A DNA stretch of 64,000 bases, from contig CAWIIC010000016.1 in the NCBI GenBank assembly GCA_963836045.1, positions 886 through 64,885 on the forward strand, read 5' to 3'. The translations under genes were made by a program, and so were the position numbers. Source of the stretch: an uncultured Pseudomonadota bacterium (GTDB taxonomy: Bacteria > Chloroflexota > UBA5177 > JAJPKF01). The notes under the pieces are model-generated. The model was not told the origin of the DNA, searched no databases, and was given only the letters and a program-made list of their open reading frames with translations. Each line of letters opens with the position of its first letter. Within the stretch, counting starts at the first letter, position 1. Shown here piece by piece: positions 1,171 to 54,688 of the stretch.

Positions 1171-1731
1171 TTCGAAAATGAGTCGTCCGAGAATAGTCTC
1201 TCATCAATACGGCCCGCGACCCTTGGCCCAGAGGCGCCCATTTCATGCTTCGTGGTGGCCCGTCGGCATGGGTGGCTAGTTCGAAAATGGCGTTTGGAAT
1301 TCTCCACGGCGACCATCGTGCGGTAGCCCGGCGCTCCGTGGCCGGGGGGATGACGGCCGTCGTCAATATTCTGACTTCCCGCCTCAAAACCAAGCGACCA
1401 ACGGAGCCACTTTCATGCTCCGTGTGGCCGCAGGCCATAGCAATCTAGTTCGAAAATGACCGATCCGAAATGACTGTCTCCATAGGCTTACGACCCCGAT
1501 CGGGCTCCTATTTTCATGCTTCGTGGTGGCCCTTAGGCATGGGTGGCTACTTGGAAACGTAGCGCGACATCAATGACGCCCCGGGATGTGGGCTTGGACC
1601 GGTAGGGGCGACATTTATGACGCCCGGCGATGTCGGTGGTCGCATAATGCTGGCGAAGCGAGGTGCAGCGTCTGGAAACCACCAGCCCTACTTTCGTACT
1701 TCGTGGTGCCGGTAACGACATGGATGACTGA
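1171..1731 (+). repeat. Intergenic composite repeat, locus A: type I unit (1171-1279), type II/I hybrid (1280-1448), type I unit (1449-1550), divergent unit with type I-like tail (1551-1731)
   Basis: Units are joined at CTAGTTCGAAAATG. They share CCGARAATGRCTGTCTC...GGCTTA.GACCC...CTATTTTCATGCTTCGTGGTGGCCC..GGCATGGGTGGCTA with copies at 46316-46551, 51017-51222 and 51547-51770. The array ends exactly at the stop codon of the minus-strand GS-like gene (1732). Confidence 0.85.
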
Positions 1732-3138
1732 TTAGGCGCGCTCGAAGAATCGCTCGCGCTCCCAGCAGGTGACTGCTTCGTCGAACTTTCGCTGCTCGGT
1801 CCTGAAGAAGTGCGCGTAGTGTTCGACGACATCCTCGCCAAACGCCTCGCGAGCAATCGTGCTCTTCTCGAATTCGACTGTCGCCTCTCGCAGAGATTTC
1901 GGGATCCTGGGAAGGCTGGCGGCGGCGTAGATGTCGCCGTCGAAGACTGGCGGCGGCTCGACCCTGTGTTCAATGCCATGGAGGCCCGAGGCGATGACCG
2001 CCGCGTACACGATATATGGGTTCGCATCCGCGCCTGGTATCCGGCACTCAATTCGCAGGGACGCTCCTTCACCGACAACGCGGAATCCTGCCGTACGGTT
2101 GTCTACACTCCAGGCAATCCCGGTTGGCGCAAAGGAGCCTTCTTGAAACCGTTTATAGGAGTTAATGGAGGCGCATAGCAGGCAGTCATCTCGCGTGCCG
2201 CGCTTATCAAGCCTCCGAGAAACCAGCGAAACGTGTCGCTCGCTGCGGACCGATCCGAGATCCTGACTGCCTGGAAAGCAGCTCTCTCCAGTCGTTGCGT
2301 CTGAGAGGCTGACATGCACGTGCATGCTGGATCCGGCTAAATTCTCGTCCCATTTCGCCATGAAGGTTACGGCTTTGCCCCGGGAGAATGCGATGTCCTT
2401 TGCCGCCTGTTTGTAGATGACGTTGGCGTCCGATTGTTGGAGAGGATCCGAGTAACGAAGATTGATCTCCTGCTGGCCCGGACCCCACTCGCCTTTACTG
2501 AATTCGACCGGAACTCCACTGGCCTCCAGTGATTCGCGAATGCTGCCGATGACATCCTCCTCTTTTGTCGACTGGAAGATGTGATAATCCTCGACGTACC
2601 GCCCCGTGGTTTTGAGGTCGTGGTATCGCTTCTCGGCAGCTGACTCGTAGCTCTCATTGAACAGGTAGAACTCCAGCTCGGACCCGGAGTTAACTGAGAA
2701 CCCCATTTCTCGAGCCCGGTCGAGCTGCTTTCGAAGCATGTGACGGGGAGCGACAGAGACGGCTTCGTTGTTTGGGTCACCGTAGACGTCGCACAGTACC
2801 AGGGCGGTGCGGGGAAGCCAGGCCGCGCGTCGTAAACTCTTCAGATCGCACACGAGATGTACATCGCCGTATCCCGTGTCCCAGCTGGCGAAAGAATACC
2901 CGGGTACCGGATCCATCTCCATGTCCGAGGCCAGGAGATAATCGCAGACGTGAAGCCCCTTGTCCGCTACCGAGTCCAGGAAGAACCTTCCGGTTATTCT
3001 CTTTCCCAGCAGGCGCCCGTACATATCGGGAAAAACTGCCAGCACAGATGTTAGCTCGCCGCGCTCGGTCTCGTCCCGGACTTCGTCCAGTGTGAGCATC
3101 CCTCGCTGCGGGAGGTCGCCTGATGACCCGCCACTCAC
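1732..3138 (-). CDS. Glutamine synthetase family protein (GlnA-like catalytic domain) containing an internal out-of-frame stretch
   Basis: 468-aa ORF with GS motifs GSSMHVHVSLSD, NSYKRF, DNRTAGFRVV and RIPGADANPY. Between about 2275 and 2170 the GS-like sequence (SDTFRWFLGGLISAAREMTACYAP) lies in a different frame (ORF 2103..2315). See findings. Confidence 0.8.
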   Translation of the reverse strand: MSGGSSGDLPQRGMLTLDEVRDETERGELTSVLAVFPDMYGRLLGKRITGRFFLDSVADKGLHVCDYLLASDMEMDPVPGYSFASWDTGYGDVHLVCDLKSLRRAAWLPRTALVLCDVYGDPNNEAVSVAPRHMLRKQLDRAREMGFSVNSGSELEFYLFNESYESAAEKRYHDLKTTGRYVEDYHIFQSTKEEDVIGSIRESLEASGVPVEFSKGEWGPGQQEINLRYSDPLQQSDANVIYKQAAKDIAFSRGKAVTFMAKWDENLAGSSMHVHVSLSDATTGESCFPGSQDLGSVRSERHVSLVSRRLDKRGTRDDCLLCASINSYKRFQEGSFAPTGIAWSVDNRTAGFRVVGEGASLRIECRIPGADANPYIVYAAVIASGLHGIEHRVEPPPVFDGDIYAAASLPRIPKSLREATVEFEKSTIAREAFGEDVVEHYAHFFRTEQRKFDEAVTCWERERFFERA

Positions 3139-3589: not shown

Positions 3590-4276
3590 TTAAGCCCTGC
3601 GAACCTCGATGTTGAAATCGGGCGTACCGAGTGTCTGCATAAGCGTCAGCCAGAGCGGGATGTACATCTCCAGGCCTCGGGCCGCACGAATGCCGCCCAC
3701 GTCAATGATGCTGCCGTCAGGCCACCCGAACCCGCGCAGAATGTCGCGTACAGTCTTTTTCGCTTCGTCGTCATCGCCGGCCACGAAGATGCTGTGCTCG
3801 CCCGGCACGAGCGACGGCTCGGTCATGATGCGGGCATTGACTGTGTTCAGGCTTTTGACCACCTTCGTCGATGGATAGGTCCTTTGTATCTGTTCAGCCA
3901 CGCTATCGGTGTTGCAAACGGACAGCGTGGGCGGGAAACCATGCGAGAAGTCGAGCGGGTTGCAAACATCGATCAACACCTTGCCGGCCAGGTTCTGCGG
4001 GCCAGCCTCGGCCAGCACGATCAGAGAAGCGGACCCGCCCGTGGCGTTGACGACCAGCTCTGCACCCTGAGCGGCTGCCGAATATGCTTGCAAGCCGATA
4101 TCAGTGTTCTCCTCCCGCCAGGCAGCATACGGCGGATTGCCCATCTGGTCGGTCTCAGTCCGAGCCATCGTCTGGACAGGGTCTCGGGTCCCGATCACCA
4201 CATCGTGGCCGTTGCGAGCGAGACCCCGAGCAATCGTTCGTCCGACGACTCCGGTTCCAAGAACGGCAATTTTCAT
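3590..4276 (-). CDS. NAD(P)-binding oxidoreductase of the COG2085 / NADPH-dependent F420 reductase-like family
   Basis: MKIAVLGTGVVGRTIARGLARNGHDVVIGTRDP is a dinucleotide-binding N-terminus. Start chosen at ATG 4276 (MKIAV) rather than the ORF-track start at 4294. Size and layout fit this family. Confidence 0.6.
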   Translation of the reverse strand: MKIAVLGTGVVGRTIARGLARNGHDVVIGTRDPVQTMARTETDQMGNPPYAAWREENTDIGLQAYSAAAQGAELVVNATGGSASLIVLAEAGPQNLAGKVLIDVCNPLDFSHGFPPTLSVCNTDSVAEQIQRTYPSTKVVKSLNTVNARIMTEPSLVPGEHSIFVAGDDDEAKKTVRDILRGFGWPDGSIIDVGGIRAARGLEMYIPLWLTLMQTLGTPDFNIEVRRA

Positions 4277-11425: not shown

Positions 11426-13246
11426 ATGGTGAATCGGCACAGGCGCAGAAACGGTAGAGCACTTCTCGCACTCGTCGTGGTATTCGCTACGACGGCGTGG
11501 CTGTGCGTTGGCCCGGCAAGCGCGGCTACACCCTATGACTGGCCGCAGTTCGATGATGGTGACTGGAGCGGGACCCATTCGGGCTTCAACGCTCAGGAGA
11601 CCGCGATCGGCAGCGGCAATGTGTCCAGTCTTGCGGTCCTGTTCCGGGCGGCGCTTCCCAGCGTGGCCGACGGGGCTCCTGCCTACCTGTCAGATGTCAC
11701 GACGGGCTCAGGGGTCAAGGATCTCCTGTTCCTTACCACCAAGGACGGGCACATTCTTGCCCTCGACGCTGGCACCGGCGCAGCTGTATGGAGTCACCAG
11801 TACGGCCCCGGAACGTGCAAGGTAAACAACGGGAGTATCGCCTGCTTCACCACCTCGTCTCCCGCAGTCGACCCAAATCGCCAGTACGTCTACAGTTACG
11901 GCCTAGACGGCAGCGTCCACAAGTATGCCGTCGGCGACGGTGCGGAAGTGACGACTGGTGGTTGGCCGGAGACCGTGACACTCAAGGCCTTTGACGAGAA
12001 GGAGTCCCCGGCACTGAGCATAGCGAGTACGCCCGGGGGTGACTATCTGTACGTCGCCAACGGCGGCTACCCCGGCGACAACGGAGACTACCAGGGTCAC
12101 GTGACTACTATCAACCTTGCCACCGGAGCGCAGAAGGTGTTCAATACCCTGTGCAGCGACCAGACCGTTCACTTTGTGGAGACACCGGGTACTCCGGACT
12201 GCAGCCAAGTCCAGTCGGCAGTGTGGGCGCGGCCGGGAGTGATATACGACCCTCATACCAACGGCGGCAACGGATCGATCTTCTTCGCGACGGGAAACGG
12301 CACCTTCGATGGGAATACGGCTGCCCACGACTGGGGCGACTCGGTACTCGAGCTACATCCCGACGGTACGGGCTCGGGCGGCAACCCGATCGACAGCTAT
12401 ACGCCAACGAACTTCGAACAGCTGCAGAACACCGATGCGGATCTAGGGAGCACGGCACCTGCGATACTGCCGGCCAGTGCCATCCCCTCCGCAAGCCAGT
12501 ACAAGGACGTTGCCGTTCAAGGCGGCAAGGACGGAGACCTTCGGCTGCTGAACCTGGACAATCTGAGTGGTCAGGGAGGGCCCGGGCACGTCGGCGGAGA
12601 GATTCAGATCGTATCCGTTGGCGGCCAGGTTCTGGCGCAGCCCGCGGTCTGGGTTAATCCCGCGGACGGAAGCATCTGGGTCTTCGTCGTGGGTTCCTCT
12701 ACCATCACCGGATTCGACCTCACCGTCGATTCGAACGGCATACCTCACCTGCAATCCCAGTGGTCGCAGCCCGACGGTGCTCAGAGCTCACCCCTTGTGG
12801 CGAATGGCGTTCTCTATGATGCCCACAACAGCGTGATCGAGGCCCGCGATCCGGTGACCGGGTCGCAATTGTGGCACGACACGACCATCGGTGGGATCCA
12901 CTGGGAGTCGCCTATTGTGGCAAACGGCAAACTGTACATCTCTGATGAATCGGGTAACCTGACGGCCTACTCGCTCGGCGCCACGTACGTGCGGGTGTCG
13001 CACTTCTCTGCTCGCCGAACGAAGGGCGGCATCACATTTCGGTGGACCGCGGCGAAGGCTTCCGGCCTCGCCGGCTTCTACCTGACCACCAGCCACCACA
13101 GGTTGAACCATCGGCTCATAGCCCGGCACATGAGAAGTATGTATTCATACACGACAGGACCAATCCGGGCAAGCCGATTCCAGCTGTACACCGTGACCCT
13201 CGATGGGCATTCCCAGCAGGTCGCATCCACCACTCCACGCCCCTGA
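11426..13246 (+). CDS. Secreted PQQ-like (BamB-type) beta-propeller repeat protein with a C-terminal about 89-aa module
   Basis: Signal-like RALLALVVVFATTAWLCVGPASA. Repeats of the type DGHILALDAGTGAAVWSH, VANGVLYDAHNSVIEARDPVTGSQLW and IVANGKLYISDESGNLTAYSL. Confidence 0.75.
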   Translation: MVNRHRRRNGRALLALVVVFATTAWLCVGPASAATPYDWPQFDDGDWSGTHSGFNAQETAIGSGNVSSLAVLFRAALPSVADGAPAYLSDVTTGSGVKDLLFLTTKDGHILALDAGTGAAVWSHQYGPGTCKVNNGSIACFTTSSPAVDPNRQYVYSYGLDGSVHKYAVGDGAEVTTGGWPETVTLKAFDEKESPALSIASTPGGDYLYVANGGYPGDNGDYQGHVTTINLATGAQKVFNTLCSDQTVHFVETPGTPDCSQVQSAVWARPGVIYDPHTNGGNGSIFFATGNGTFDGNTAAHDWGDSVLELHPDGTGSGGNPIDSYTPTNFEQLQNTDADLGSTAPAILPASAIPSASQYKDVAVQGGKDGDLRLLNLDNLSGQGGPGHVGGEIQIVSVGGQVLAQPAVWVNPADGSIWVFVVGSSTITGFDLTVDSNGIPHLQSQWSQPDGAQSSPLVANGVLYDAHNSVIEARDPVTGSQLWHDTTIGGIHWESPIVANGKLYISDESGNLTAYSLGATYVRVSHFSARRTKGGITFRWTAAKASGLAGFYLTTSHHRLNHRLIARHMRSMYSYTTGPIRASRFQLYTVTLDGHSQQVASTTPRP

Positions 13247-16096: not shown

Positions 16097-16623
16097 GCAC
16101 ATGACTCAACCTGCTGACAACTCCCAAATCTGAACCAATCCCCAGATCGAGGCTGGCGCCTTCCGGCGATCTGCCTCGGGCAGCTCGCGAGAGGCCCTCC
16201 GGTACACGTCGACATCAATTTTCGCCCGGGCCGCCCAAATTGCGCTCCAACAGAGCTGTGGCCCCTTCACGGTGCATTTCTCACTCGACCTTATATAGAC
16301 GTTCAAGAAGCCTGTGATCGCCATCTGGTGTTGTAGCTTTGAATGTCCAGCGACCGTTCCTCAAGAGCTATCGCCAGCTCGTCGGTGAGCGCCCGGCAGA
16401 ACGCAGCCGGACTTGCGTACGACCTCTCGCGGTTCACATTGTCGGAGAACAAACTCCCGGTCCGAAACGCTCCCCAACCGAGACAGCAGTCACGAACTGC
16501 CACTCCAGCTAACGGCAGGAAAAACACCTAAACTGGTGAGTCACTGATTGCCCACCCACTGCGCTGCTGCCAAATAGCTGGGAATCGTCAGTGCCCGTCG
16601 AACATACCAAAGGAGTCGCGTTC

Positions 16624-18051
16624 ATGCCGACTATCGACGAGCTGTGGAACGTCGTAAAGGAACAGCAGAAGGAAATCCAAGCCCACCGCGAGGAAATCCA
16701 GGCCCTGAGGAAGAAGCGTCATCGCGCCCCAGTTTCACGCCGAGGACTCGCCCTGGTCGCGACCGTCATCGCTGCCGTGGCCCTGAGCGGAGCCGCGTTT
16801 GCGGCTGGACCGGTCAGCGCCAATCTGGTCCATGGCTGCTACAGCCCCAACACCAGAGCTCTAACGCTTGCAAGGGTATCGGGGTGTCCAAAGGGCACCG
16901 TCGCGATCGCTTGGAATCAGTTCACCGCCATCACGGCGAGTAAACCCCTCACGGTCACGCCGGGTGTCAGGGGAAGTGCTCCCAACGTGACTCTCACCGG
17001 AACGGTGCCCACAGCTCGGAGCTTCACCGGCTCGTTGACTGGAGACGTGCGTGGCACCCAGGGCACGACCAAGGTGGGAGCGATACAGGGAGTGCCGGTA
17101 TCCAGGACCACGCCGAGCAACAGCCAGCTACTCGGTTTCAACGGCACCACCTGGACGCCGACCTCCGTCTATGATCCGCGGCAGGTCGCCCTGCTCAAGT
17201 GGTATTCCGAGCCGGCTGGTTGGGTACCCGCAAGCGTGACCGTGGGGACCGGCCCCTGGGGTGTGGCTTTCGACGGGAGCCACATCTGGGTCGCGAATGA
17301 AAGCACCGGAAACGTGAGCGAGATCGACGTTGCCGGCCACACCGTCATCAACACGGTTACGGTGGGTGGCAATCCAATCGGGGTTGCCTTCGACGGCAGC
17401 CACATCTGGGTCTCGAACGTCAACGACACGGTCAGCGAGATAAGCGACACGCCCACTCCCACCGTCATCAACACCGTGACGGTGGGGAGCGATCCTGGCG
17501 CCGTGGCCTTCGATGGCAGCCACATCTGGGTCTCGAACGACGCCGCCAACACCGTCAGCGAGATTGACGTGGCCACTCACAGCGTCATCAACACCGTGAC
17601 CGTGGGACCCCTGGGTGGACGTCGGGGCATGGCCTTCGACGGCAGCCACGTCTGGGTGGCGAACGACGGTGGCAATACCGTGAGCGAGATCGCTGACACG
17701 GCCAACCCCAGCGTCATCAACACCGTGACCGTGGGCAGAAATCCGCAAGGTGTGGCCTTCGACGGCAGCCACATCTGGGTGGCGAACGGCGCCAGCACCG
17801 TCAGCGAGATCGACGTGGCCACCCGCCGCGTCATCAATACCGTGACCGTGGGGCCCAACCCCGGTGCCGTAGCCTTCGACGGCAGCCACATCTGGGCGGC
17901 GAGCGACGACAACACCGTGAGCGAGATCGAAGTAGCCACTCACAGCGTCATCAACACCGTGAACGTGGGATCAACTCCCTTCGGCATTGCCTTCGACGGC
18001 AGCCACATCTGGGTTACGAACTTCGGCGGTACCACCGTGAGCATTCTCTAG
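16624..18051 (+). CDS. Membrane-anchored 7-blade YVTN/NHL-like beta-propeller protein
   Basis: ATG 16624 follows AAGGAG. Coiled N-terminus, then TM helix LALVATVIAAVALSGAAFAA. Then seven units of about 42 aa: VINTVTVG..P.GVAFDGSHIWV.N...NTVSEIDVA. Confidence 0.8.
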   Translation: MPTIDELWNVVKEQQKEIQAHREEIQALRKKRHRAPVSRRGLALVATVIAAVALSGAAFAAGPVSANLVHGCYSPNTRALTLARVSGCPKGTVAIAWNQFTAITASKPLTVTPGVRGSAPNVTLTGTVPTARSFTGSLTGDVRGTQGTTKVGAIQGVPVSRTTPSNSQLLGFNGTTWTPTSVYDPRQVALLKWYSEPAGWVPASVTVGTGPWGVAFDGSHIWVANESTGNVSEIDVAGHTVINTVTVGGNPIGVAFDGSHIWVSNVNDTVSEISDTPTPTVINTVTVGSDPGAVAFDGSHIWVSNDAANTVSEIDVATHSVINTVTVGPLGGRRGMAFDGSHVWVANDGGNTVSEIADTANPSVINTVTVGRNPQGVAFDGSHIWVANGASTVSEIDVATRRVINTVTVGPNPGAVAFDGSHIWAASDDNTVSEIEVATHSVINTVNVGSTPFGIAFDGSHIWVTNFGGTTVSIL

Positions 18052-45522: not shown

Positions 45523-46038
45523 TCAGCCCATCGTTTTGGCGCCGTCGAGAGCTTCTCTGATTATGTCGGCGTGACCGGAATGTTGAGCCGTTTCAGCGAG
45601 TATGTGGAGCAGGGTCGTGCGCACCGACCATCTCGTTCCTGGCTTGAACCAGGGCGCGGGTGGAAGCTCGTGGTCATCGTCGAACGATGGAACGGTTCTG
45701 ACGATTTCGTCCGTCCGCTGAGCAACTCTTTCGTACTCGTCCAGCGCCCCTTGTAGTGTCTCAGTCTCGACCAGGCGGAAGGTCAATTTGTACTCTTCGG
45801 CGCTGCCCTGATCGATCTCGGAAAATGACGCAGCGCCCGATTCGATAAAGTTCGCCCACCGCGCCTCGACAAGGGCGACGTGTTTGATGATTCCCCCGAG
45901 GGTCAGCTCGCTGACGGTCGTCCGCTCCCGGGCTTGATCGTCGTTAAGATCGCGAACCGTGTAGCGTAGAAAACCGCGTTGCGCGGCTAAGGAACTGAGG
46001 AAGTCACTCCTCTCCCGGCTCAGTGACTCGTCACTCAT
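45523..46038 (-). CDS. DinB-family protein (DUF664 / mycothiol-transferase-like)
   Basis: Start set at ATG 46038. RGFLRYTVRDLNDDQARERTTVSELTLGGIIKHVALVEARW...LLHILAETAQHSGHADIIRE. Confidence 0.75.
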   Translation of the reverse strand: MSDESLSRERSDFLSSLAAQRGFLRYTVRDLNDDQARERTTVSELTLGGIIKHVALVEARWANFIESGAASFSEIDQGSAEEYKLTFRLVETETLQGALDEYERVAQRTDEIVRTVPSFDDDHELPPAPWFKPGTRWSVRTTLLHILAETAQHSGHADIIREALDGAKTMG

Positions 46039-46315
46039 CGAACTCTCCCATCTCATCCTCCTCCTATATAAGGTATAGCGGCTTCCCACTAAGCTCATAC
46101 GGTAGGGGACCCTCCTAATGTAGCCCTGTCCGGGCATGAGCCTCTATGAAGTCGCTCACACCCCCGGTCATAGCCAACCTGGCTAGAAGAGGGACGGAAG
46201 GCCATCCAGGAGCTGGTGGGCAGAGGCGACTCCGAGTTTCAGGTGGCGAGCGAAGCCGGCGTTCTGAACGGAGAATGTGCAGGCGGCGGCCGGGTGAGCC
46301 GGTATCGTGGTCTGG

Positions 46316-46551
46316 TTCTCAAAATGGCGCTCGAAGCCTTGCCTTCATTAGCCTTCCTGTACACGACGAACCACCCTGACCCGACCGCTATTTTCATGCT
46401 TGGTGGTGCCCATAGCCATGCGAGGCTAACTCGAAACTGCCGTTGAATCCTCCACGTAGACCATCACCGCGACTAGTGTGCTGAGTCTTCCAAGCCCGTG
46501 CGCTCGCGGTCGCTGGAACTGAAAACTGACAACTGAAAACTGACAACTCTC
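46316..46551 (+). repeat. Intergenic composite repeat, locus B: degraded type I unit (46316-46429), type II module (46430-46516), heptamer array (46517-46551)
   Basis: ...CTATTTTCATGCTTGGTGGTGCCCATAGCCATGCGAGGCTAA CTCGAAACTGCCGTTGAATCCTCCACG...GCGGTCGCTGG AACTGAA AACTGAC AACTGAA AACTGAC AACTCTC. Confidence 0.8.
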
Positions 46552-46961: not shown

Positions 46962-47029
46962 TCCTTCTGCGAGCTGGCAAATGAATGGAGTCGGCCTCAC
47001 CTACGCTTTCCCCAGAAGTGCGAACAACC

Positions 47030-50000
47030 TCAAGGCCCCTGCACGATCACGCTCTGGCTCCCGCTTGTGGCGTCGCTCGTGCGGTCGCCGGCGTAGAGCC
47101 CCGCCACTTGCCATGTGCCGGCAGTGAGCGGGCCTCCTGTCGGAGTCGTCAGCGTGTCGCTGAAGCTGCCGTTCGTGTCGGTCTGTGCGATGTCGACCAC
47201 GGGCGCGGAACCGTCCGGCGGCGAATAGGTGATTCGGACAATGCGGTTGGCCAGCGGAGTCGGTCCCCCGGCGGGCGTGACGACGGTGCTGTCGAGTGTG
47301 CCCTGGCAGGAAATGTTGTTCGATCCCGATGAGGAGCACTGGAAGGACTGGAACTTCGTCGCCACTTTGACCGGGTTGACTGTCAGGTCGTAGGTCACTG
47401 TGCGGGTAGAGCCCGCGGACACTGGGTCGCTCGGGGCCGCCGTGATGGTGATCGGGTAGGTTCCCGCGGGTGTGGACGGTGATGTTCGAATGGTCAGTTT
47501 GGAGGACTTTCCGGCCAGCAGAGAGGCCGGCTTGAGGGAGGCAGTGGTCCCCAACGGCAGGCCGCGAATACCGAGCTTCATTCTCAGTAACCTGCCCGAA
47601 TACTGGCTGGTTTGCACCATAGCCGAGACGGATTGGCCCTGGAGTACCGACCCTCCGGAAGGGCCGACCGCGAGCGAGACGACGTTCTGGACCGGCGTGA
47701 CCGGCGGCTGAACCTTGTTGAATGAGCAGCCCTCGAGACAACTGGATCGCAGCGCGGCGAACAGGACCTCGGCCGCTTGACCGCGGGTCACGGCCCTGCG
47801 CGAAGCGTAGGTGTGGAACGCCTGCTTGAGGTAGCCCATCGCCACGCCCTTCTTGATCTTGAGGGTCTTGACGAGACCCGTGACCAGGGCGGCCTCAGTG
47901 ACCGGCAAGTTCTGTCCGCGGGACGACCCGAAGGTCAGGGTCAGCACCCGAGACGGCGCGAGATGCACCATGCCGCCCAGGGCGCCGGCGAGCTCGATCC
48001 TCGTGATCGCCGCTGAGGGCCTGAACGCGTCGTCGGCATTCGCGCTCATGTATCCCAGGTAGGTCAGGACGTCGATCGCTTGGCTCGCCGGGTCACCCGG
48101 GCGCACATCGACGAAGCGTTCGCGGCTGACGGCCTGCCCGTTGACCGTGCCGAGGTAATTGATCGCCAGGTATCGTTTGTAGGTGGCAAGCTTCCCAATC
48201 AAGCTGGGCGATCCCGGAGCGTTGGGATCCTGGTACATGAAGGTGCCGAAGGCCCGATCGAGGTAGACGTTCGCCTCGGGCTGTTGGGGCATCGGGTTGT
48301 GACACTTCGGGCAGCTCGGGCTGGCGGAAGTCGTGTTGTCGAAGTCATTGAGATCCACCGCCGCCGTGGTTTCCTGCGTGGTCGTGTTGGCCGTGGAGTC
48401 AGAGTACTTCGTGTCTTGAGAGTAATCCTCCGATGTCTGCTCCCCCGATGACAGCGTCATAGTCCCCTTCTCCGAGAGCCCGCCGTAGCTCTCAGTGAGG
48501 GTGAAGCCGCCGCCGACGTCGGTGGTATTCACGTCTGAGTATCCGCTCTTGGAGGTCAGGACCGTTCCGCTCCCCTGGGTTGTCTTGTTTGTGTTGTCCC
48601 AGGATTGGGAGAAGTCCAGCGGATTCTTCTCGTTGTACGGGTAGCTGGCTCCATAGCTCCCCACGTTGGGGGAGATTGGGATGCCGCGAGAGGTCTGGAC
48701 ATCCGCGCCCTGCCCTGCCCCGTAGAACGGGTCTAGCGCCAGCAAGTTGGCCGCTTCCTGCGACGTAAGCTCCACGCAGGAGTCCTCCGGAGTTTGGGGC
48801 GGCATGTCGTTGCATGAGGTCGGGTGGTACACCACGTTGCCGTTGTAGGTGATCTCCACCCCGCCGAACTGGATGAGGCACGGATCGACCCCGGCGCTCC
48901 ATTGACCGATACGGCAGTCCTCGAGCTGCAGTACCGAGACGTGGGCCAGCGTAGGTACCGCCGCCTTTGTGATCCACAACGATTGACCCGCGCTGACCTC
49001 GTAGACCCGGTACTGGGTATGAAGATTGAGCAGGAACTCGTCCTCCCAGAAGGGCTCGCCGGTGTACTGCGCTAGCCTCGACGGATGGATCAGGTCCCCT
49101 GTGGAGCAGTCCCAGCTCTGTCCGGTCTGCGCCGGCGGGGCGCAGGTCGAGCCGTCTCCCGGAACGAGGCTGTTGTCGGGGTTGTTGAAGGCCCAGGTGG
49201 TCTTGATCGCTGTAGTGTCGGTGGACTCGTCGGATGACGAGACTGTGCTGCCGAATCCCGCCACCGTGCTGTTGTCCCACTTATATGAATCGCTGAAATT
49301 CACGCCCAGGATGCCGGCGGTTATCGAATCCTCGAATTTGGCGCTGTTGGTCTGGGTGTCCTTGTAGTTGTCGCTGGTCGTGCTGTCGTTACTGAGCTTG
49401 TAATCCGTGCCGAAGCCGAGGTTGGTCGTGTATGACGCCTTGCTGAGGTCCCCGGTTGGGTGGTAGAGGATGGTGTATGGCTCGACCGTCATCTGGGCGT
49501 AGGCGACCGGTGCCCAAATCACGTTGAACCCCTTGGAAAATCCATTGGAGCTGCGGTACAAGGGAGTCCCGCCGTGACTGTCGGTCTCGGACACATACCA
49601 CTGAAAACGATACGTCGCGACGTGGTCCGAATTCGTCTGGCTCGAGTTCGGATCTGGAGCCTGGATTGTAAGGCCACCGTGCGCGGTGCCGTCCCCGCCG
49701 GGTGACGTCAGACTGTCCGACACGTAGGTGCTCGGCACGTCCTCCCAGTAGCCGGTGTTGCCGTCCCAGTTGGTGCACGTGCCGTACTTCTGACTGACGC
49801 CGCTCTCGACGTCACAGACCTGCAAGCTGGCGCCGTACCCCCCGGTGTCGCCCAAATTGCGGTACTGCCCGTTGGACCCCCAGGTGCCGCTCTGGTTCTC
49901 CGGAAACGAGCCGGACTGGTCATTGAAGTACGTGGCTATGTGAAATGTTTGGTTCGGCAGGGCAAAGGGGAGCGTGTCCGGAGGCTGGAACAGCTCCTCG

Positions 50001-50509
50001 TGCAGAGAGCTCGACTCGCTTTGCCACGCCTGGTCGTTGCTGCCCTGACTGTAGAAGTGCGGGTAGGGCCCCCAGACGTCCAGCTCCCCAATGGAATATG
50101 TGAAAGCGGCGGTACTTGCAACCGTTGAGGCGGGACGAATGAGGCACAGGTACTTCACGCAGAGAGTCCCTGCCGGAATGTTGGCATAAACCGGCACGGT
50201 GCTGCCGTCGGGCACGCCGTTAGGAGCGTAGGCTGTAATGGTCGTACTGTTCTTGACCTTGAACGACGCCGACACGTTTCCGAAGAGGACCTGGTTGACT
50301 GCACCCAGTCCGCACCCAGTGATGGTGATGGGTGTGTTGGCTGGACCGTAGTCGGGACTGATGCCGCTGATTACAGCCTTTGTGCACGCATCCCCAACGA
50401 GAGCGGCCTTCACGGCCTGTGGGCTGGTGGCCACTCCCACGACGGAGATGACCACGACTAGTACCGCCAAAATGTGTCGACGACTGCCTGTGGACGACCG
50501 GCTGCTCAT
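47030..50509 (-). CDS. Large secreted cell-surface protein: N-terminal IPT/TIG domain, long Ser/Thr/Gly-rich middle, SLH-like motifs, C-terminal Ig-like regions
   Basis: AAGGAGG upstream. Signal ILAVLVVVISVVGVATSPQAVKA. ISGISPDYGPANTPITITGCGLG..VLFGNVSASFKV.NSTTITAYAP (IPT/TIG). FVDVRPGDPASQAIDVLTYLGYMSA..DDAFRPSAAITRIELAGAL (SLH-like). Confidence 0.7.
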   Translation of the reverse strand: MSSRSSTGSRRHILAVLVVVISVVGVATSPQAVKAALVGDACTKAVISGISPDYGPANTPITITGCGLGAVNQVLFGNVSASFKVKNSTTITAYAPNGVPDGSTVPVYANIPAGTLCVKYLCLIRPASTVASTAAFTYSIGELDVWGPYPHFYSQGSNDQAWQSESSSLHEELFQPPDTLPFALPNQTFHIATYFNDQSGSFPENQSGTWGSNGQYRNLGDTGGYGASLQVCDVESGVSQKYGTCTNWDGNTGYWEDVPSTYVSDSLTSPGGDGTAHGGLTIQAPDPNSSQTNSDHVATYRFQWYVSETDSHGGTPLYRSSNGFSKGFNVIWAPVAYAQMTVEPYTILYHPTGDLSKASYTTNLGFGTDYKLSNDSTTSDNYKDTQTNSAKFEDSITAGILGVNFSDSYKWDNSTVAGFGSTVSSSDESTDTTAIKTTWAFNNPDNSLVPGDGSTCAPPAQTGQSWDCSTGDLIHPSRLAQYTGEPFWEDEFLLNLHTQYRVYEVSAGQSLWITKAAVPTLAHVSVLQLEDCRIGQWSAGVDPCLIQFGGVEITYNGNVVYHPTSCNDMPPQTPEDSCVELTSQEAANLLALDPFYGAGQGADVQTSRGIPISPNVGSYGASYPYNEKNPLDFSQSWDNTNKTTQGSGTVLTSKSGYSDVNTTDVGGGFTLTESYGGLSEKGTMTLSSGEQTSEDYSQDTKYSDSTANTTTQETTAAVDLNDFDNTTSASPSCPKCHNPMPQQPEANVYLDRAFGTFMYQDPNAPGSPSLIGKLATYKRYLAINYLGTVNGQAVSRERFVDVRPGDPASQAIDVLTYLGYMSANADDAFRPSAAITRIELAGALGGMVHLAPSRVLTLTFGSSRGQNLPVTEAALVTGLVKTLKIKKGVAMGYLKQAFHTYASRRAVTRGQAAEVLFAALRSSCLEGCSFNKVQPPVTPVQNVVSLAVGPSGGSVLQGQSVSAMVQTSQYSGRLLRMKLGIRGLPLGTTASLKPASLLAGKSSKLTIRTSPSTPAGTYPITITAAPSDPVSAGSTRTVTYDLTVNPVKVATKFQSFQCSSSGSNNISCQGTLDSTVVTPAGGPTPLANRIVRITYSPPDGSAPVVDIAQTDTNGSFSDTLTTPTGGPLTAGTWQVAGLYAGDRTSDATSGSQSVIVQGP

Positions 50510-51016
50510 GGGATGCCTCCTTTGATAACCAACTGCAGCACACTCAGAACTCAGCTCTCAGCAATTGAGGTCAACCACCTCTGGCCAGCCCCCATGCAAG
50601 ACGCTGGGCTCAGTGGCAGACCTACGACCTTTGTTCGCCACGTACCGAACACCATCCTGTCCCCAAGTGTTCCTCTTCCGTTTCCGGGATGGTCTCACCG
50701 ATGCCCCAGCCTCGATCGTGGCGAGCCGTACTCTCAGGGGACGGTGACCGGCGAACACTGATCGCTACACCGGCGGCGAATGCTTGAGCACCTACTCCCA
50801 AGAGAAGAATGGCCACCGCGACCGTTGCTATGTGCGGTGGCTTTCGCGTCTCGCTTCGTCGCAAATCGGACGACTTAAAAGACAATCCTACACCCATCCA
50901 GGCAACTTGTCAATAGTCAAACTCAGTCACAGAAACGGGTGTCACGACAGCGCGATCGTTGACCATCTCCAGCCGCTCGCTTGCTTTGAAAAGCGCGGCG
51001 ACAGCAAAGCTTCTAG

Positions 51017-51222
51017 TTCGAAAATGAGTGGTCCGAGAATGGCTGTCTCAATGGACGTACGACCCGACCCGGCGCCCATTTTTATGGTTCGTGGTGCCCC
51101 AAAAGGCATGGGAGGCTAGTTCGAAAATGACCGGTCCGAAAATGACTGTCTCAATAGGCTTAAGACCCTCATCCGGCTCCTATTTTCATGGTTCGTGGTG
51201 GCCCAAAGGCATGCGTGGCTAA
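51017..51222 (+). repeat. Intergenic composite repeat, locus C: two tandem type I units (51017-51119, 51120-51222)
   Basis: Each unit runs from TTCGAAAATGA to GGCATG.G.GGCTA(G/A). Each holds an ATG-to-stop reading of 31 codons (ATG at 51024 and 51127). Confidence 0.85.
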
Positions 51223-51546
51223 CGATCCCGACCTCCCGGATATCGGCAGACCTCGTCCTGGATCAACCACCAGCCGCCGAGAAGTTATCCACAATGCTCC
51301 TAAAAGAGCCCTAAAAAGCCGCGGACAGTCCTCTGTCCATGGCCTTTCGCTAACTCCCGTTTTTCGGCGCCAGCATTGGCCCCGCGCCCGACACGCAAAA
51401 ACGTTCACTCGTCCGTCAGCTATAGATACCGACAGAAACGACGGCTTACCGAAATCCTACGCCTATTCGCCCGCCCGCGCGCCACGCAACCCCGGCCCGG
51501 AGCCACACAGACCCAGTCCGCATCCAACCGGGTACCCCAACCACTA

Positions 51547-51770
51547 AATCGACAATGAGTGGTCCGCGAATGGTTGTTTCAAGGGGCTTAAGACCCTGGC
51601 CCGGCCCCTATTTTTCATGTTTCGTGGCGCCCCGAAGGCATGGGAGGCTAACTCGAAAATGGCATCGCAATCCTCCCCGGCGACCACCACCGCGACTACT
51701 ATGGTCTTCCATGCCCGGGCGGTAGCGGTCGCTGGAACTGAAAACTGAAAACTGACAACTGACAACTACT
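51547..51770 (+). repeat. Intergenic composite repeat, locus D: type I unit (51547-51651), type II module with hairpin (51652-51735), heptamer array (51736-51770)
   Basis: Type II module: CTCGAAAATGGCATCGCAATCCTCCCCG GCGACCACCACCGC...GCGGTAGCGGTCGC TGG. Then AACTGAA AACTGAA AACTGAC AACTGAC AACTACT. The CTA at 51766-51768 is the reverse complement of the crp stop codon. Confidence 0.85.
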
Positions 51771-52512
51771 TTGTTTCGGTTTGGGCCTCCAACGCCGCAC
51801 GGTTCGTGACCATCACGCGTCCGCGAGAAGTCTCTACAACGCCCTCAAGCCGCCATCGCCCAAGGATCTCTGAGACAGTCTGGCGGGTGCTTCCGACCAT
51901 ACTTGCCAGCTGCTCTTGCTGGATGGCTATAGGAACGCGACACCCCGGAGGTTGGTCAAGACTAAGCAAGGTTTTCGCAAGGCGGCCCCCCACGTCGAGA
52001 AATCGCGTTGTCCTGATTCTGTCGTCCGCTGCCCTCAGCCGTCGGCTCAGCGCCCGTATCAAGTTGAGCATGGTTTCAGGATGGCTGTAGAGGTGGGCAA
52101 ACAGGTCCTGCCTCGAAATCGTCAATAAGTCTGCTGCTCGCGACACGATTGCCGTAGCCGAGCGCGGCTCGTCGTCTAGAAGGGCCATCTCTCCCAAGAA
52201 GCCGCCAGGCCCAACTTGTCCGAGCGTGATCTGATCTCCCTCGGCAGACCCGAGCACGAGGTCCACCGTTCCGGAACAAACCACGTAGGCTTTGTCTCCG
52301 GCATCGCCCTCTAAGAAGAGAATCTGACCTTTTCGAGCCCTCCTCCGCCCTACGAGGCGAGAAAGCTCGTCCAGGTCGGACGCGGGGAGTCCCTCAAACA
52401 GAGGAAGGGCCGCAAGAGTCGAGGCCGCGTCTTCCCTTTCCGCTTTGCCACCTTCTTTGATACATGAGAATGTAGGCTGATCGTCAGATAACGCTACCGC
52501 ATTGCCGGTCAC
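51766..52512 (-). CDS. Crp/Fnr-family transcriptional regulator
   Basis: 248 aa. LPLFEGLPASDLDELSRLV..RRARKGQILFLEGD.GD.AYVV.SGTVDL...GGFLGEMALLDDEPRSATA (cNMP-binding-type effector domain). C-terminal HTH QEQLASMVGSTRQTVSEILGRW. Confidence 0.85.
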   Translation of the reverse strand: MTGNAVALSDDQPTFSCIKEGGKAEREDAASTLAALPLFEGLPASDLDELSRLVGRRRARKGQILFLEGDAGDKAYVVCSGTVDLVLGSAEGDQITLGQVGPGGFLGEMALLDDEPRSATAIVSRAADLLTISRQDLFAHLYSHPETMLNLIRALSRRLRAADDRIRTTRFLDVGGRLAKTLLSLDQPPGCRVPIAIQQEQLASMVGSTRQTVSEILGRWRLEGVVETSRGRVMVTNRAALEAQTETK

Positions 52513-52539
52513 CGAACCCGTGGGCCGCCCATGGCTGGA

Positions 52540-52638
52540 GCAGTTGTTTCGCAGCCGTGGTCCGGTGTTTCATTGCCCGGCCGGTCGTGGTCGCCTGAAA
52601 CTGAAAACTGAAAACTGACACCTGACAACTAAAAACTA
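52540..52638 (+). repeat. Intergenic composite repeat, locus E: short type II-tail remnant plus heptamer array (52595-52638)
   Basis: ...GGTCGTGGTCGC CTGAAA CTGAAAA CTGAAAA CTGACAC CTGACAA CTAAAAA CTAC. The CTA at 52636-52638 is the reverse complement of the stop codon of the frame-corrected HExxH gene. Confidence 0.8.
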
Positions 52639-54490
52639 CCCGAGATTCATCTGAATGAGCTTCCATCCCTTTTGCGTGGCAACGGATAGCATCGTAACGT
52701 AGTAATCCGGCGCGGGCCAGTTGCAGCCCTGACTGGTATCGTACGCGCTGCAGTCAAAGTACGAAGCGGCTGCGATGGTGTACCGGCCCGCCGGTTGTTG
52801 GTAATCGCAGAGCTGGTCCTTGTCAGCCGCCCGTGTTGACCGATCTGCAGCTTACCCCCTGAGCGCTGTGCTGGAAGTCGGACGCCGTGCTGCCCACGAC
52901 AACCCACGGATTTGGAGGATGGTCCGGATCGAGAAACGTCCAGGTTGTGATTCCGGTCGTGGTGGTGAACCGTCGGTTTCCCACGATACTGAGATACGCG
53001 ATCCGTCCGTTTCGGAACATCGCTATCACGGGAGCGTTGAGACCTTCACTGTAGTCCCGCAGCTGACACGTGCTGCCATCGCCCAGGTGGCACGAAATTG
53101 GCTGGAAGGCGTGGGCCAGCTTGGCCGCGGTGTCGGCCTCCTGCGTGGTCATGCCCAGATGAAGTGGACCGACCTCGAACCCAGGCACGATCACATGCTG
53201 TCCCGGGCATGGGGTCTTGCTCGTCAGAACCTTGAAATTAACGGAGCTCGGCGCCGTCTTCGCCGTGGTCGTCAGCGCCAGTCGGATGTCCTCCGTTGCG
53301 GGTAGCGGCAGAGAGCCTTCGGCATATCCGTTCCGGCAGAACAGCTCGTCGAAGCTGTCGCCCGGGTGGAGGTGCGAGAACGAGCCCTTACCAAGGTTGA
53401 TCCACAACTCGAGCCCTGCCGGAAGCTTGTGGATCTTGAGCTCAACCTGCTCGATGTTGCCGGCGGGCACCAGATCCGGAAGTCTGGCTGCCAAAGGCTG
53501 AGCGGTGGGCGTCGTCAGGGTATGCTGCGGCTGCGTGATCGAGACCTTCTTCAGCTTGGCCCGCGGCCCAAAGGCCGGGTTCTGGTTCGTATGATCCGCC
53601 CAGAAGGACGCCACCTCGTCCGCCAGAGATTCTTTGGTCTCCTTGAGTGCGGCGTCGACACCGGCCGTAGCTCCAAGCTCGCGTACCTTCAGAATCGATT
53701 CCTTTAGAAACGCCCAGTTCGCCGCCGTCGGCATGCCGTCTGTGTTCAAAAGCCATTGCACGAACACGTAGGCCGCGTATTGATGACGCCCGGCGCTGGC
53801 ACTGAGGAAGTCCATGGGAACCTCCGGATGGTCCGTCACGTCCTGCACGCCCTCGTCCGGTGACAATCCCATCCAGTACTCCGCTGCCGTCGCGGTGGCC
53901 TCGAACCACCAGTTTGAGCCGGTCGTAAGCTCTCGTAGCAAGGCGAACTGGGCCGCGTGAAACAGCTCGTGCACGACGACCGCGTCCATGTATGCGGGGT
54001 CAGAGGCGGTGGTACCATCCACGATCAGCGAGCCCCAGGTGGGGTGACCACACTGTGGCGCGAAGAGGCCATCGAAACTACCGTCTCCGCTCAGCTTTCC
54101 CTCTGAGATGAGGATTGGAAATGGCCCGGGCTGTCCCGGCTGCAGAAGGGAGGTGAGGCCCAGCCCCTTCTCATATGTCTGAAAGACCTTGAGGCTGCGG
54201 ATCGCGTTGGCGACGTCCACGGCGTCGGCCTCCTGGGCCTTGGCGCTTCGTACCACGAACTGATCTCCGGGCTTGGACGGAGCTGCGGTCCCGCTCGAAG
54301 CGCCACCGATGCAAGATTCATCCCGAACGATGTGGGCCATCGGGTGAGGGGAGTCGGCCGAGGCGATTCCGCCAGAGCTCGCACCGCCGATCAATAAGCC
54401 GGTGAAAATCAAGACGCGAAGGAAAGTATGCCTGGGGACAGGCGGTAGGAGTCGCCCAACGACAGAGGCGCTCTTGCAAACTATTGACAT
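52636..54490 (-). pseudogene. Secreted HExxH-motif protein (putative zinc metallopeptidase); C-terminal about 65 aa lie in another frame
   Basis: Start set at ATG 54490 (GGGAGGAG upstream). Signal-like FLRVLIFTGLLIGGASSGGIASA. AVVVHELFHAAQF (HExxH). ORF 52823..54565 stops at 52823, but a third frame continues with the protein-like ADKDQLCDYQQPAGRYTIAAASYFDCSAYDTSQGCNWPAPDYYVTMLSVATQKGWKLIQMNLG to TAG (52636-52638). Confidence 0.6.
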
Positions 54491-54688
54491 TCGTCCACTC
54501 CTCCCGGTGCTACGAGTCGCTCTGAGAACCTTCACCTTCTGGTTCTTACTGCCAGTCTTACGCACCGATTGGGCGTCAGACCATGAGATGTCACAGAGTT
54601 AACCCACGGAATACCTTCGTTACCGTGGTTCGGTTGACATTGTTAGCATCGGATAAGGAATTCGAGCTATGTCGAGCTGTACCACCTG

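Follow-up and report, generated by a model that had tools for sequence, protein, structure and literature searches.

Heptanucleotide repeat arrays flush with stop codons in a high-G+C bacterial genome

The arrays and their setting

The DNA analysed is a 64-kb stretch (64,000 nt of contig CAWIIC010000016.1), referred to as the window, and the elements in question are three short tandem arrays of a heptanucleotide, CTGAMAA on the plus strand and TTKTCAG on the minus strand. Arrays 2 and 3 end on the TAG stops of two minus-strand genes, one encoding a crp-family regulator and the other called here the HExxH-type gene (Table 1). Each array is made of four to six units, AAACTGA and CAACTGA, joined head-to-tail around the core AACTGA, and all three lie in intergenic DNA, outside the open reading frames (ORFs). 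A sequence-only reading of the window had described the arrays, each with a GGTCGC prefix, and had placed two of the three in register with minus-strand TAG stops. Its coordinates, its sequences, the prefix and the register at both genes all hold when the window is read again. The GGTCGC stands 0-5 nt from the array, with GCCCG nine bases ahead of it.

The arrays are far denser than chance would give. A two-unit pattern allowing up to 2 mismatches matches 11 times in the window where 0.67 matches would be expected, and this number was not attained in any of 100 shuffles. Tandem Repeats Finder (TRF) assigns period 7 to all three arrays and returns no further period-7 array in the whole 64 kb. 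On the plus strand they carry a TGA every 7 nt and so put stops in all three frames. The TTKTCAG strand is open in all three frames, as is confirmed by a 65-aa ORF that runs through array 1.

Table 1. Features of the window around the three arrays
Feature	Position	Strand	Remarks
Heptamer array 1	46519-46546 (46517-46551 in the sequence-only reading)	+	CTGAAAA CTGACAA CTGAAAA CTGACAA, then CTCTCTG
Heptamer array 2	51738-51765	+	CTGAAAA CTGAAAA CTGACAA CTGACAA, then CTA 51766-51768
Heptamer array 3	52595-52635	+	CTGAAA CTGAAAA CTGAAAA CTGACAC CTGACAA CTAAAAA, then CTA 52636-52638
GGTCGC before arrays	46508-46513 (array 1), 51727-51732 (array 2), 52589-52594 (array 3)
Module copy A	46373..46518	+	ends GGTCGC-TGGAA, array 1 attached
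Module copy B	51593..51737	+	G+C-rich hairpin GCGACC...GGTCGC, 5 nt from array 2
Short module remnant	52560..52594	+	GCCCG-N9-GGTCGC, precedes array 3
crp-family regulator gene	51766..52512	-	cNMP_binding and HTH_Crp_2 domains up to residue 243 of 248
crp TAG stop	51766-51768	-	in register with CTG of array 2 heptamers
HExxH-type gene, main ORF	52823..54565	-	580 aa
HExxH-type gene, frame-shifted C-terminal segment	52636..52851	-	TAG 52636-52638 in register with array 3
Repeat modules of ~103 nt (CTAGTTCGAAAATG...GGCTA)	51013..51650	+	~620 nt between array 2 and next gene
Terminator-like hairpin and T-run	51322..51339	-	consensus scan only; ~430 nt downstream of crp stop
Promoter-like site, next gene	50913-50885		consensus scan

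The register at crp follows from the ORF and from the extent of its domains. At the HExxH-type gene it depends on a frame correction that the sequence-only reading had proposed. The mechanical ORF listing ends this gene at 52823, and another frame gives a stop at 52647; the 580-aa main ORF has no Pfam match. Across 52640-52789 the phase of G+C at third codon positions (GC3) fits the frame that terminates with the TAG at 52636-52638, and the 71-aa C-terminal peptide of that frame aligns with residues 531-589 of 597 in P0125 (BLASTP E 1e-21) and with residues 546-609 of 614 in P0123. As a lone query the peptide found no match, and it was aligned only to homologues fetched with the main ORF. Because the GC3 phase and the homologue C-termini agree, the corrected stop is accepted. 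The gene therefore carries a frameshift near 52823-52851, its true C-terminus being the 71 aa in another frame. The cause may be an error of assembly, or the lesion may be real and the gene a pseudogene. The crp protein gives a 100% match to P0001 in a homology search, and the best named homologues come from metagenome-assembled genomes (MAGs) of Chloroflexota; judged from these sequences, the high-G+C host is probably a member of Chloroflexota.

Read on the CTGAMAA strand, each window array forms the 3' tail of a small dispersed module of the form ...CCCGG-N8-GGTCGC-YKGAA-array. The segments 46373-46548 and 51593-51767 are 82% identical over 179 nt, and array 3 together with its remnant matches 51703-51768 at 87% identity over 68 nt. 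Copies A and B both contain the G+C-rich GCGACC...GGTCGC hairpin 5 nt from the array. The GGTCGC lies 5' of the array in all nine arrays seen in this lineage, namely the three of the window, four in the related locus L086 and one each in L087 and L001. A genome collection that does not include the window's own genome was scanned with the module-plus-array pattern and gave only two loci, in a Thermoanaerobaculia MAG (L002) and in the unclassified MAG L001. The latter shares another repeat with window positions 1590-1735.

No known RNA element was recognised at the arrays. Rfam gave no matches in the whole window at the gathering threshold, and an E-value search of 50500-52700 returned matches at chance level only, such as ilvB-OMG, which scored 19.7 bits where the gathering score is 95.9. 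Folding of 51540-51775 did not significantly beat shuffles on either strand (z -1.8 and -1.0). If the predicted terminator at 51322-51339 is used, array 2 probably lies inside a 3' untranslated region (UTR) of crp of about 430 nt. The array itself could be imagined as part of an intrinsic or bidirectional terminator between convergent units, being placed directly past stop codons, with a 14-bp G+C-rich hairpin 5 nt past it on the crp strand; arrays elsewhere pair into hairpins of ~28 bp. The parts are in the wrong order for this. The U-rich tract comes ahead of the hairpin, while on the other strand an A-rich tract comes after it, and the paired arrays elsewhere have the U/G-rich arm first, which is the reverse of an A-tract, stem and U-tract. 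The scan does not call the array 2 site and calls the canonical site 430 nt further on instead. Many such hairpins also sit within strings of co-directional genes, right before a ribosome-binding site (RBS). We give hardly any credence to this possibility, and we do not think that the arrays are terminators or coding features.

Variation between related loci and the origin of the in-phase stops

The crp gene of the window can be compared with those of L086 (90% identical), L087 (92%) and the outgroup L088 (65%). In L086 the gene ends ...AAAG TAG GTGTCAG TTTTTAG TTGTCAG TTGTCAG, followed by a 56-nt insertion and then TTTTCAG TTTTCAG TTCCAGCGACC..., so that the array has six units and an insertion where the window has four units. 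The insertion is related to window 1690-1733 and has array units on both its sides. L087 has no array after crp, which there ends ...ACC GAA GCA TAA (TEA-TAA), and L088 has none either, ending ...AEA-TGA. The array-bearing genes of the window and L086 end ...TETK-TAG, one codon longer than the array-free gene of L087. Starting 8 bases past the TAA of L087, the DNA matches the window from 46999 downward. The window (47000-51771) and L086 thus carry 4.77 kb extra where L087 has 8 nt only (4025-4032). This segment comprises the array, the repeat modules, the promoter-like site and a gene for a 1159-aa protein with SLH and TIG domains. One of its breakpoints is the crp stop codon, and the other side is a region with a hairpin and small ORFs. 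The TAA of the array-free orthologue comes one codon sooner, and the crp stop of the window and L086 therefore seems to derive from the array-bearing DNA.

The array at 46519 is kept in all three loci, with four units in the window, four in L087 and five in L086, and with A/C differences between units. The other loci fetched behave in the same way: L073 and L082 have 10 and 4 units at one locus, and a single phage locus represented by eight contigs has from 4 to 7. Orthologous arrays differ by whole 7-nt units, which is the behaviour of a variable-number tandem repeat (VNTR) subject to slipped-strand mispairing, and they also accept small insertions. The sequence-only reading had listed a slippage-prone VNTR among its possibilities, and the comparison of lengths at 46519, crp, L073/L082 and the phage locus bears it out. 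About 290 nt from the array 1 orthologue, L086 has a group II intron reverse transcriptase (11775-12591, RVT_1 and GIIM domains). The window's counterpart on that side is a mycothiol-S-transferase/DinB gene (45523..46137).

How the stops come to be in phase can be approached from the wider set of arrays described in the next section. Forty TTKTCAG arrays have the stop of a coding ORF within 45 nt upstream. Ten of these stops are at 0 nt, all of them TAG; four are at 1 nt, where TGA or TAA is followed by G or T, and one is at -3. No distance other than 0 nt holds more than four cases. Because TTKTCAG is open in all frames, a gene that runs into an array would have to get its stop from the first unit. 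A single transition, CAG to TAG, would give the in-register stop at 0 nt, and a single transversion, TCA to TGA or TAA, would give a stop at 1 nt. The distances found are those to be expected if the reading frame recruits its stop from the first repeat unit that it meets, and the crp comparison above is one instance, although the step from this pattern to a mechanism is our own inference. For both crp and the HExxH-type gene, the simplest account of the in-phase TAG is a repeat unit altered by one base, from CAG to TAG.

The sequence-only reading had also suggested the end of a mobile element that targets or creates TAG. In this account the array would be the terminus of a non-autonomous element of the MITE, REP or small dispersed repeat (SDR) kind, inserting at or near stops and bringing its own TAG. 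Part of this stands. Every array seen in this lineage is attached to a GGTCGC module, copies occur at non-orthologous places, and three of five independent module loci adjoin a stop. AAGTAG with the array is found at the crp end in both the window and L086, and the junction recurs inside the L086 array. The region takes up small repeats, as in the 56-nt insertion and the 620-nt block next to array 2, and the array-free crp orthologue has a different stop. Targeting of stops and the hallmarks of a transposon did not emerge: no terminal inverted repeats, target-site duplication or adjacent transposase were seen in the junctions read, and copies are found at starts and in gene-free spacers as well. 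The viral arrays described below have unrelated flanks and lack GGTCGC at 4-5 nt, many arrays face starts rather than stops, and arrays of many other units share the same polarity, so the rule is not the property of one element. We regard a mobile element as an unlikely source of the pattern, although an arguable one.

Several other small repeats lie around the arrays. Between array 2 and the next gene there are three ~103-nt modules upstream of copy B, and further copies are at 1167-1557. The family (CTAGTTCGAAAATG...TTTCATGCTTCGTGGTG...GGCATGGGWGGCTA) has at least 8 copies at 1167-1735 and 51013-51650, all on the plus strand and thus oriented like the arrays throughout. The number of modules varies between strains, the 620-nt block being missing from the orthologous spacer of L086. 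Their core hairpin has a weak RNAalifold consensus (-4.8 kcal/mol), and the proposed helix has no covariation beyond shuffles. A second small repeat (...ACTTTCGTACTTCGTGGTGCCGGTAACGACATGGATGA) is found at window 1590-1735, at L001 3360-3490 on the minus strand and at L086 6620-6675. In the window it ends at a CTGA flush with the TAA stop of a 468-aa gene (1732..3138, minus strand), and its 3' part of ~45 nt is the core of the 56-nt insertion within the L086 crp array. In L001 a GGTCGC module comes after it, followed by an array whose end is 1 nt from a TAA stop. Elsewhere in the window, the ORF 16591..18051 on the plus strand contains tandem repeats of ~117-120 nt at 17235-18021 (6.5 copies with 72-75% matches). 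These repeats encode a motif of ~39 aa (VAFDGSHIWV.N...NTVSEID), probably of a repeat-domain protein.

Arrays in other genomes and their polarity

A pattern of four CTGAMAA units was found in 52 IMG/VR contigs, mostly of 59-69% G+C and with unrelated flanks, and several of these contigs hold 2-4 arrays each. None of the 52 has GGTCGC 4-5 nt before an array, the spacing of the window, and we therefore take GGTCGC to be specific to the window's lineage and to lie outside the array class. A scan of metagenomes gave 31 further loci with both arrays and GGTCGC, which may largely be chance co-occurrence among very many arrays. One of them, L061, is cyanobacteria-like and has arrays ending on TAG stops, together with HIP1 motifs (GCGATCGC). 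Overall, uncultivated high-G+C phage contigs are rich in the arrays, which are also found in Chloroflexota-, Acidobacteriota- and cyanobacteria-like contigs. Typically a gene stop is followed by (TTKTCAG)n, then by a loop of 3-105 nt and (CTGAMAA)n, and finally by an RBS and start or by the stop of a convergent gene.

Period 7 dominates the 770 kb fetched, in which there are 339 arrays of at least 3 units with period 7 against 32 with period 6 and 22 with period 8, and the period-7 arrays comprise dozens of unit types. Some viral contigs (L010, L016, L021/L040/L056, L036, L042 and L050/L051) have heptamer arrays in many of their intergenic spacers, often as inverted pairs. Each spacer in these contigs has its own 7-nt unit (AACTGGC, AATCCCT, ACGCCCC, ACAGCCG and others), and in every case the G/T-rich arm is first. 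BLAST of the array-rich phage contig L010 against GenBank phages gave no match. Different heptamers also occur together outside Cyanobacteria: in L002 (4217-4247, minus strand) the spacer ahead of the CTGAAAA array holds a GTTGAGC/GTTCAGC heptamer array as well.

Polarity was measured on 210 non-redundant, strand-asymmetric arrays between called ORFs, drawn from 85 fetched loci. In 153 of them the end closer to an ORF is the 3' end of the A/C-rich strand, as opposed to 57 in which it is the other end (p 2e-11). Stops lie at a median of 4 nt and starts at 15 nt from that 3' end, compared with 44 and 86 nt from the other end. The bias is present in NAACTGA-like units (92:30) and in other units (61:27) alike, and it disregards the orientation of the neighbouring gene. 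Seventeen of 40 TTKTCAG arrays begin within 10 nt after a same-strand stop, compared with 4 of 39 CTGAMAA arrays (p 0.002), and 20 of 39 CTGAMAA arrays lie within 30 nt before a same-strand start, compared with 1 of 35 TTKTCAG arrays (p 2e-6). Of 52 inverted pairs, 50 open with the G/T-rich arm, as do 22 of the 23 with units other than NAACTGA. Degenerate units gather at the flank of the perfect core that faces the ORF (p 0.0009 and 0.007). Arrays 2 and 3, at 0 nt from their stops, are solo and have the orientation typical of arrays after stops. A tabulation of distances to stop codons had been suggested by the sequence-only reading. In the fetched loci the contact with ORF boundaries extends to starts as well as stops, and the observation at the two window genes is one case of a general polarity rule that covers both.

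The arrays might also be neutral microsatellites that arise by polymerase slippage, their contact with stops merely reflecting compact intergenic DNA. Unit number does vary between relatives, intergenic spacers in the phage contigs are short, and among long simple repeats heptamers are the most frequent in many bacteria, according to Mrazek 2007 as cited in PMC4679880 and PMC4692102. Neutral growth predicts symmetric distances, whereas the arrays lie flush with ORFs at one end and not at the other (153:57). Neither the fixed arm order of the pairs nor the asymmetric decay along the array is expected of it, and one unit recurs in distant taxa (also PMC2408588). We consider a neutral origin very improbable.

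Three further candidates were tried and rejected. A barrier of stops in all frames fails as a general explanation, as many heptamer units that obey the rule have no stop on either strand. A replication-strand bias is contradicted by solo arrays that are oppositely oriented after stops and before starts of co-directional genes. In integron attC sites the RYYYAAC arm comes first and the GTTRRRY arm last. The array pairs place the GTT-type arm first, opposite to attC.

A protein might read the arrays in RNA, a 3'-UTR binding platform being another possibility named in the sequence-only reading. In the crp mRNA the array would appear as UAG-UUGU-CAG-UUGU-CAG-UUUU-CAG, with NAG triplets every 7 nt. 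Contiguous 7-nt units, direct or inverted, with one protein per unit are known from the omega repressor of plasmid pSM19035, which has heptad operators, and from HutP (UAG-N4). By analogy these serve as a model for the reading of a register only; the sequences are unrelated and no such protein was identified here. The reader could be a multimeric protein like HutP, or S1, Csp or a CsrA-type protein as proposed for the TAACTGA repeats discussed below. An RNA platform of this kind would suit the strict 7-nt register with typically at least 4 units, the non-random orientation relative to ORF borders, and the A-rich arrays 11-30 nt before starts in phage contigs, which resemble those of Ca. Maribeggiatoa (PMC4679880). 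The predicted terminator 430 nt downstream would place array 2 in the crp 3' UTR. Yet the polarity is independent of the orientation of the neighbouring gene (also PMC4692102), which is unexpected for an mRNA signal, and many unrelated units behave alike. The hairpins of paired arrays have no bias towards stability on the sense strand. We find an RNA platform distinctly unlikely.

Relation to published repeats and meaning

The sequence-only reading had held that no feature class known to it explains a 7-nt period at stop codons. That view has to be given up, as heptamer repeats at ORF ends are in the literature (PMC4679880, PMC4692102, PMC2408588). The class is not new; it is that of the published intergenic heptanucleotide repeats, whose role is still unexplained.

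The closest match is the TAACTGA direct repeat of marine Beggiatoaceae, with 169 sets in Ca. Maribeggiatoa and further occurrences in Cyanobacteria and Bacteroidetes (MacGregor 2015, PMC4679880). It has stops in all frames on one strand and is open on the reverse, lies before starts or directly after stops, shows 7-nt indels between strains, and has been proposed to be a post-transcriptional regulator; in Microcystis and Flexibacter it takes other positions (PMC4679880). The window arrays share with it the identical core AACTGA, a number of units of 2-6 or more, the intergenic position, 7-nt indel steps, the stop in every frame of one strand and the reversed orientation directly after stops. 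They differ in the first base of the unit, which is A or C and mixed within an array instead of T, in the high-G+C and probably chloroflexotal host, and in being fused to the lineage-specific GGTCGC module. AAACTGA and CAACTGA are hardly ever repeated in Ca. Maribeggiatoa (Table 3 of PMC4679880). None of the three window arrays precedes a start, which is the typical position there, whereas related arrays in phage loci do (20 of the 39 within 30 nt).

TTGTCAG arrays are known from Nostoc PCC 7120, where csR1.1 (ttgtcagttgtcagttgtca) has 44 genomic occurrences (PMC2408588). The unit is identical to one of ours, and those arrays are likewise intergenic and tandem and occur among other small repeats. 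The hosts belong to different phyla and differ in base composition. Mazel and coworkers reportedly described cyanobacterial STRR-type heptamers in 1990, and the classical STRR1-3 units are said to differ in sequence from CTGAMAA.

The placement rule itself has been described for the GGGNATC/GGGGAYT heptamers of Xanthomonas and Nostoc, which lie closest to the 5'-neighbouring ORF regardless of its orientation (Rehm et al. 2015, PMC4692102). On the coding strand they are 0-50 bp from stops, stop overlaps included; they prefer four units, form inverted pairs and have no known function (PMC4692102). Polymerase slippage is said to favour 7 nt in Mrazek 2007, as cited in PMC4679880 and PMC4692102. 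The arrays studied here follow the same placement rule and share with GGGNATC repeats the number of about 4 units, the inverted pairs and the length variation between relatives. The GGGNATC units are G-rich and form G-quadruplexes, whereas the units of arrays 1-3, CTGAMAA/TTKTCAG, have no G-runs and cannot. Therefore G-quadruplexes cannot explain the common placement rule.

Elhai and colleagues are said to have treated the small dispersed repeats of cyanobacteria in 2008. Like those and like BIME/REP elements, the modules here form extragenic mosaics after gene ends, vary in number between strains and have elements inserted into repeats. Unlike in BIME/REP, no REP-type palindrome tagged with GTAG was recognised, the core hairpin of the ~103-nt module lacks covariation, and no RAYT was seen, no search having been made for one.

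Taken together, we think that the arrays are probably (A/C)AACTGA tandem repeats belonging to a polar class of intergenic heptamers, which in this genome tail a small module, vary in length and lie flush with ORFs. Several observations count against this reading or limit what it rests on. Array 1 (46519) has no contact with a gene; the sole ORF that enters it, of 65 aa, is broken by a 1-nt indel between strains. An array copy in L086 (3387-3407) likewise lies in a spacer with no stop codon or gene adjoining. The excess of TAG at 0 nt is partly built in, most arrays following a partial unit that ends in ...AG. The difference at the crp locus is a segment of 4.77 kb and no clean insertion of the array alone, and whether it arose by insertion (window and L086) or by deletion (L087) is judged from a single outgroup. 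The gene calls behind the statistics are crude ORF and GC3 calls, and the loci were chosen for this heptamer and are no random sample of genomes. Finally, when arrays are paired, the sense strand forms the more stable RNA hairpin in 16 cases and the antisense strand in 18, and this parity gives no support to a role at the level of RNA.

As to function, our best guess is that the arrays are cis-acting nucleic-acid elements at ORF borders, forming a hairpin arm where they are paired and an unstructured spacer where they are solo. An A/C-rich unstructured leader before starts and hairpin arms between genes are plausible uses where arrays are so placed. The poor fit to a terminator, the parity of the hairpins and a polarity that is blind to gene orientation lead us to lean away from a simple mRNA signal, and towards a property that is strand-symmetric or acts at the level of DNA, or towards a polar growth from ORF borders. 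The arrays could even be the product of an unrecognised process, independent of sequence and crossing phyla, that builds or places 7-nt repeats at ORF borders with a fixed polarity. It is the 5' end of the G/T strand at the ORF, the older units on the ORF side and the G/T-rich arm coming first that suggest such a process, and we hold the idea to be doubtful. If it were true, the arrays could be punctuation of gene borders or joints of cassette exchange, and the 4.77-kb difference that starts at the crp stop would exemplify such a joint.

The locus is a well-documented example of a known puzzle and not a new kind of element. It adds the NAACTGA type in a high-G+C, probably chloroflexotal, genome, and the fetched loci add that the polarity rule holds whatever the unit sequence. 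One consequence for genes is that a repeat unit can supply the stop codon and with it the C-terminus of the protein. Were the polarity due to a dedicated mechanism, it would bear on how gene borders and mosaic joints are formed in phages and bacteria.

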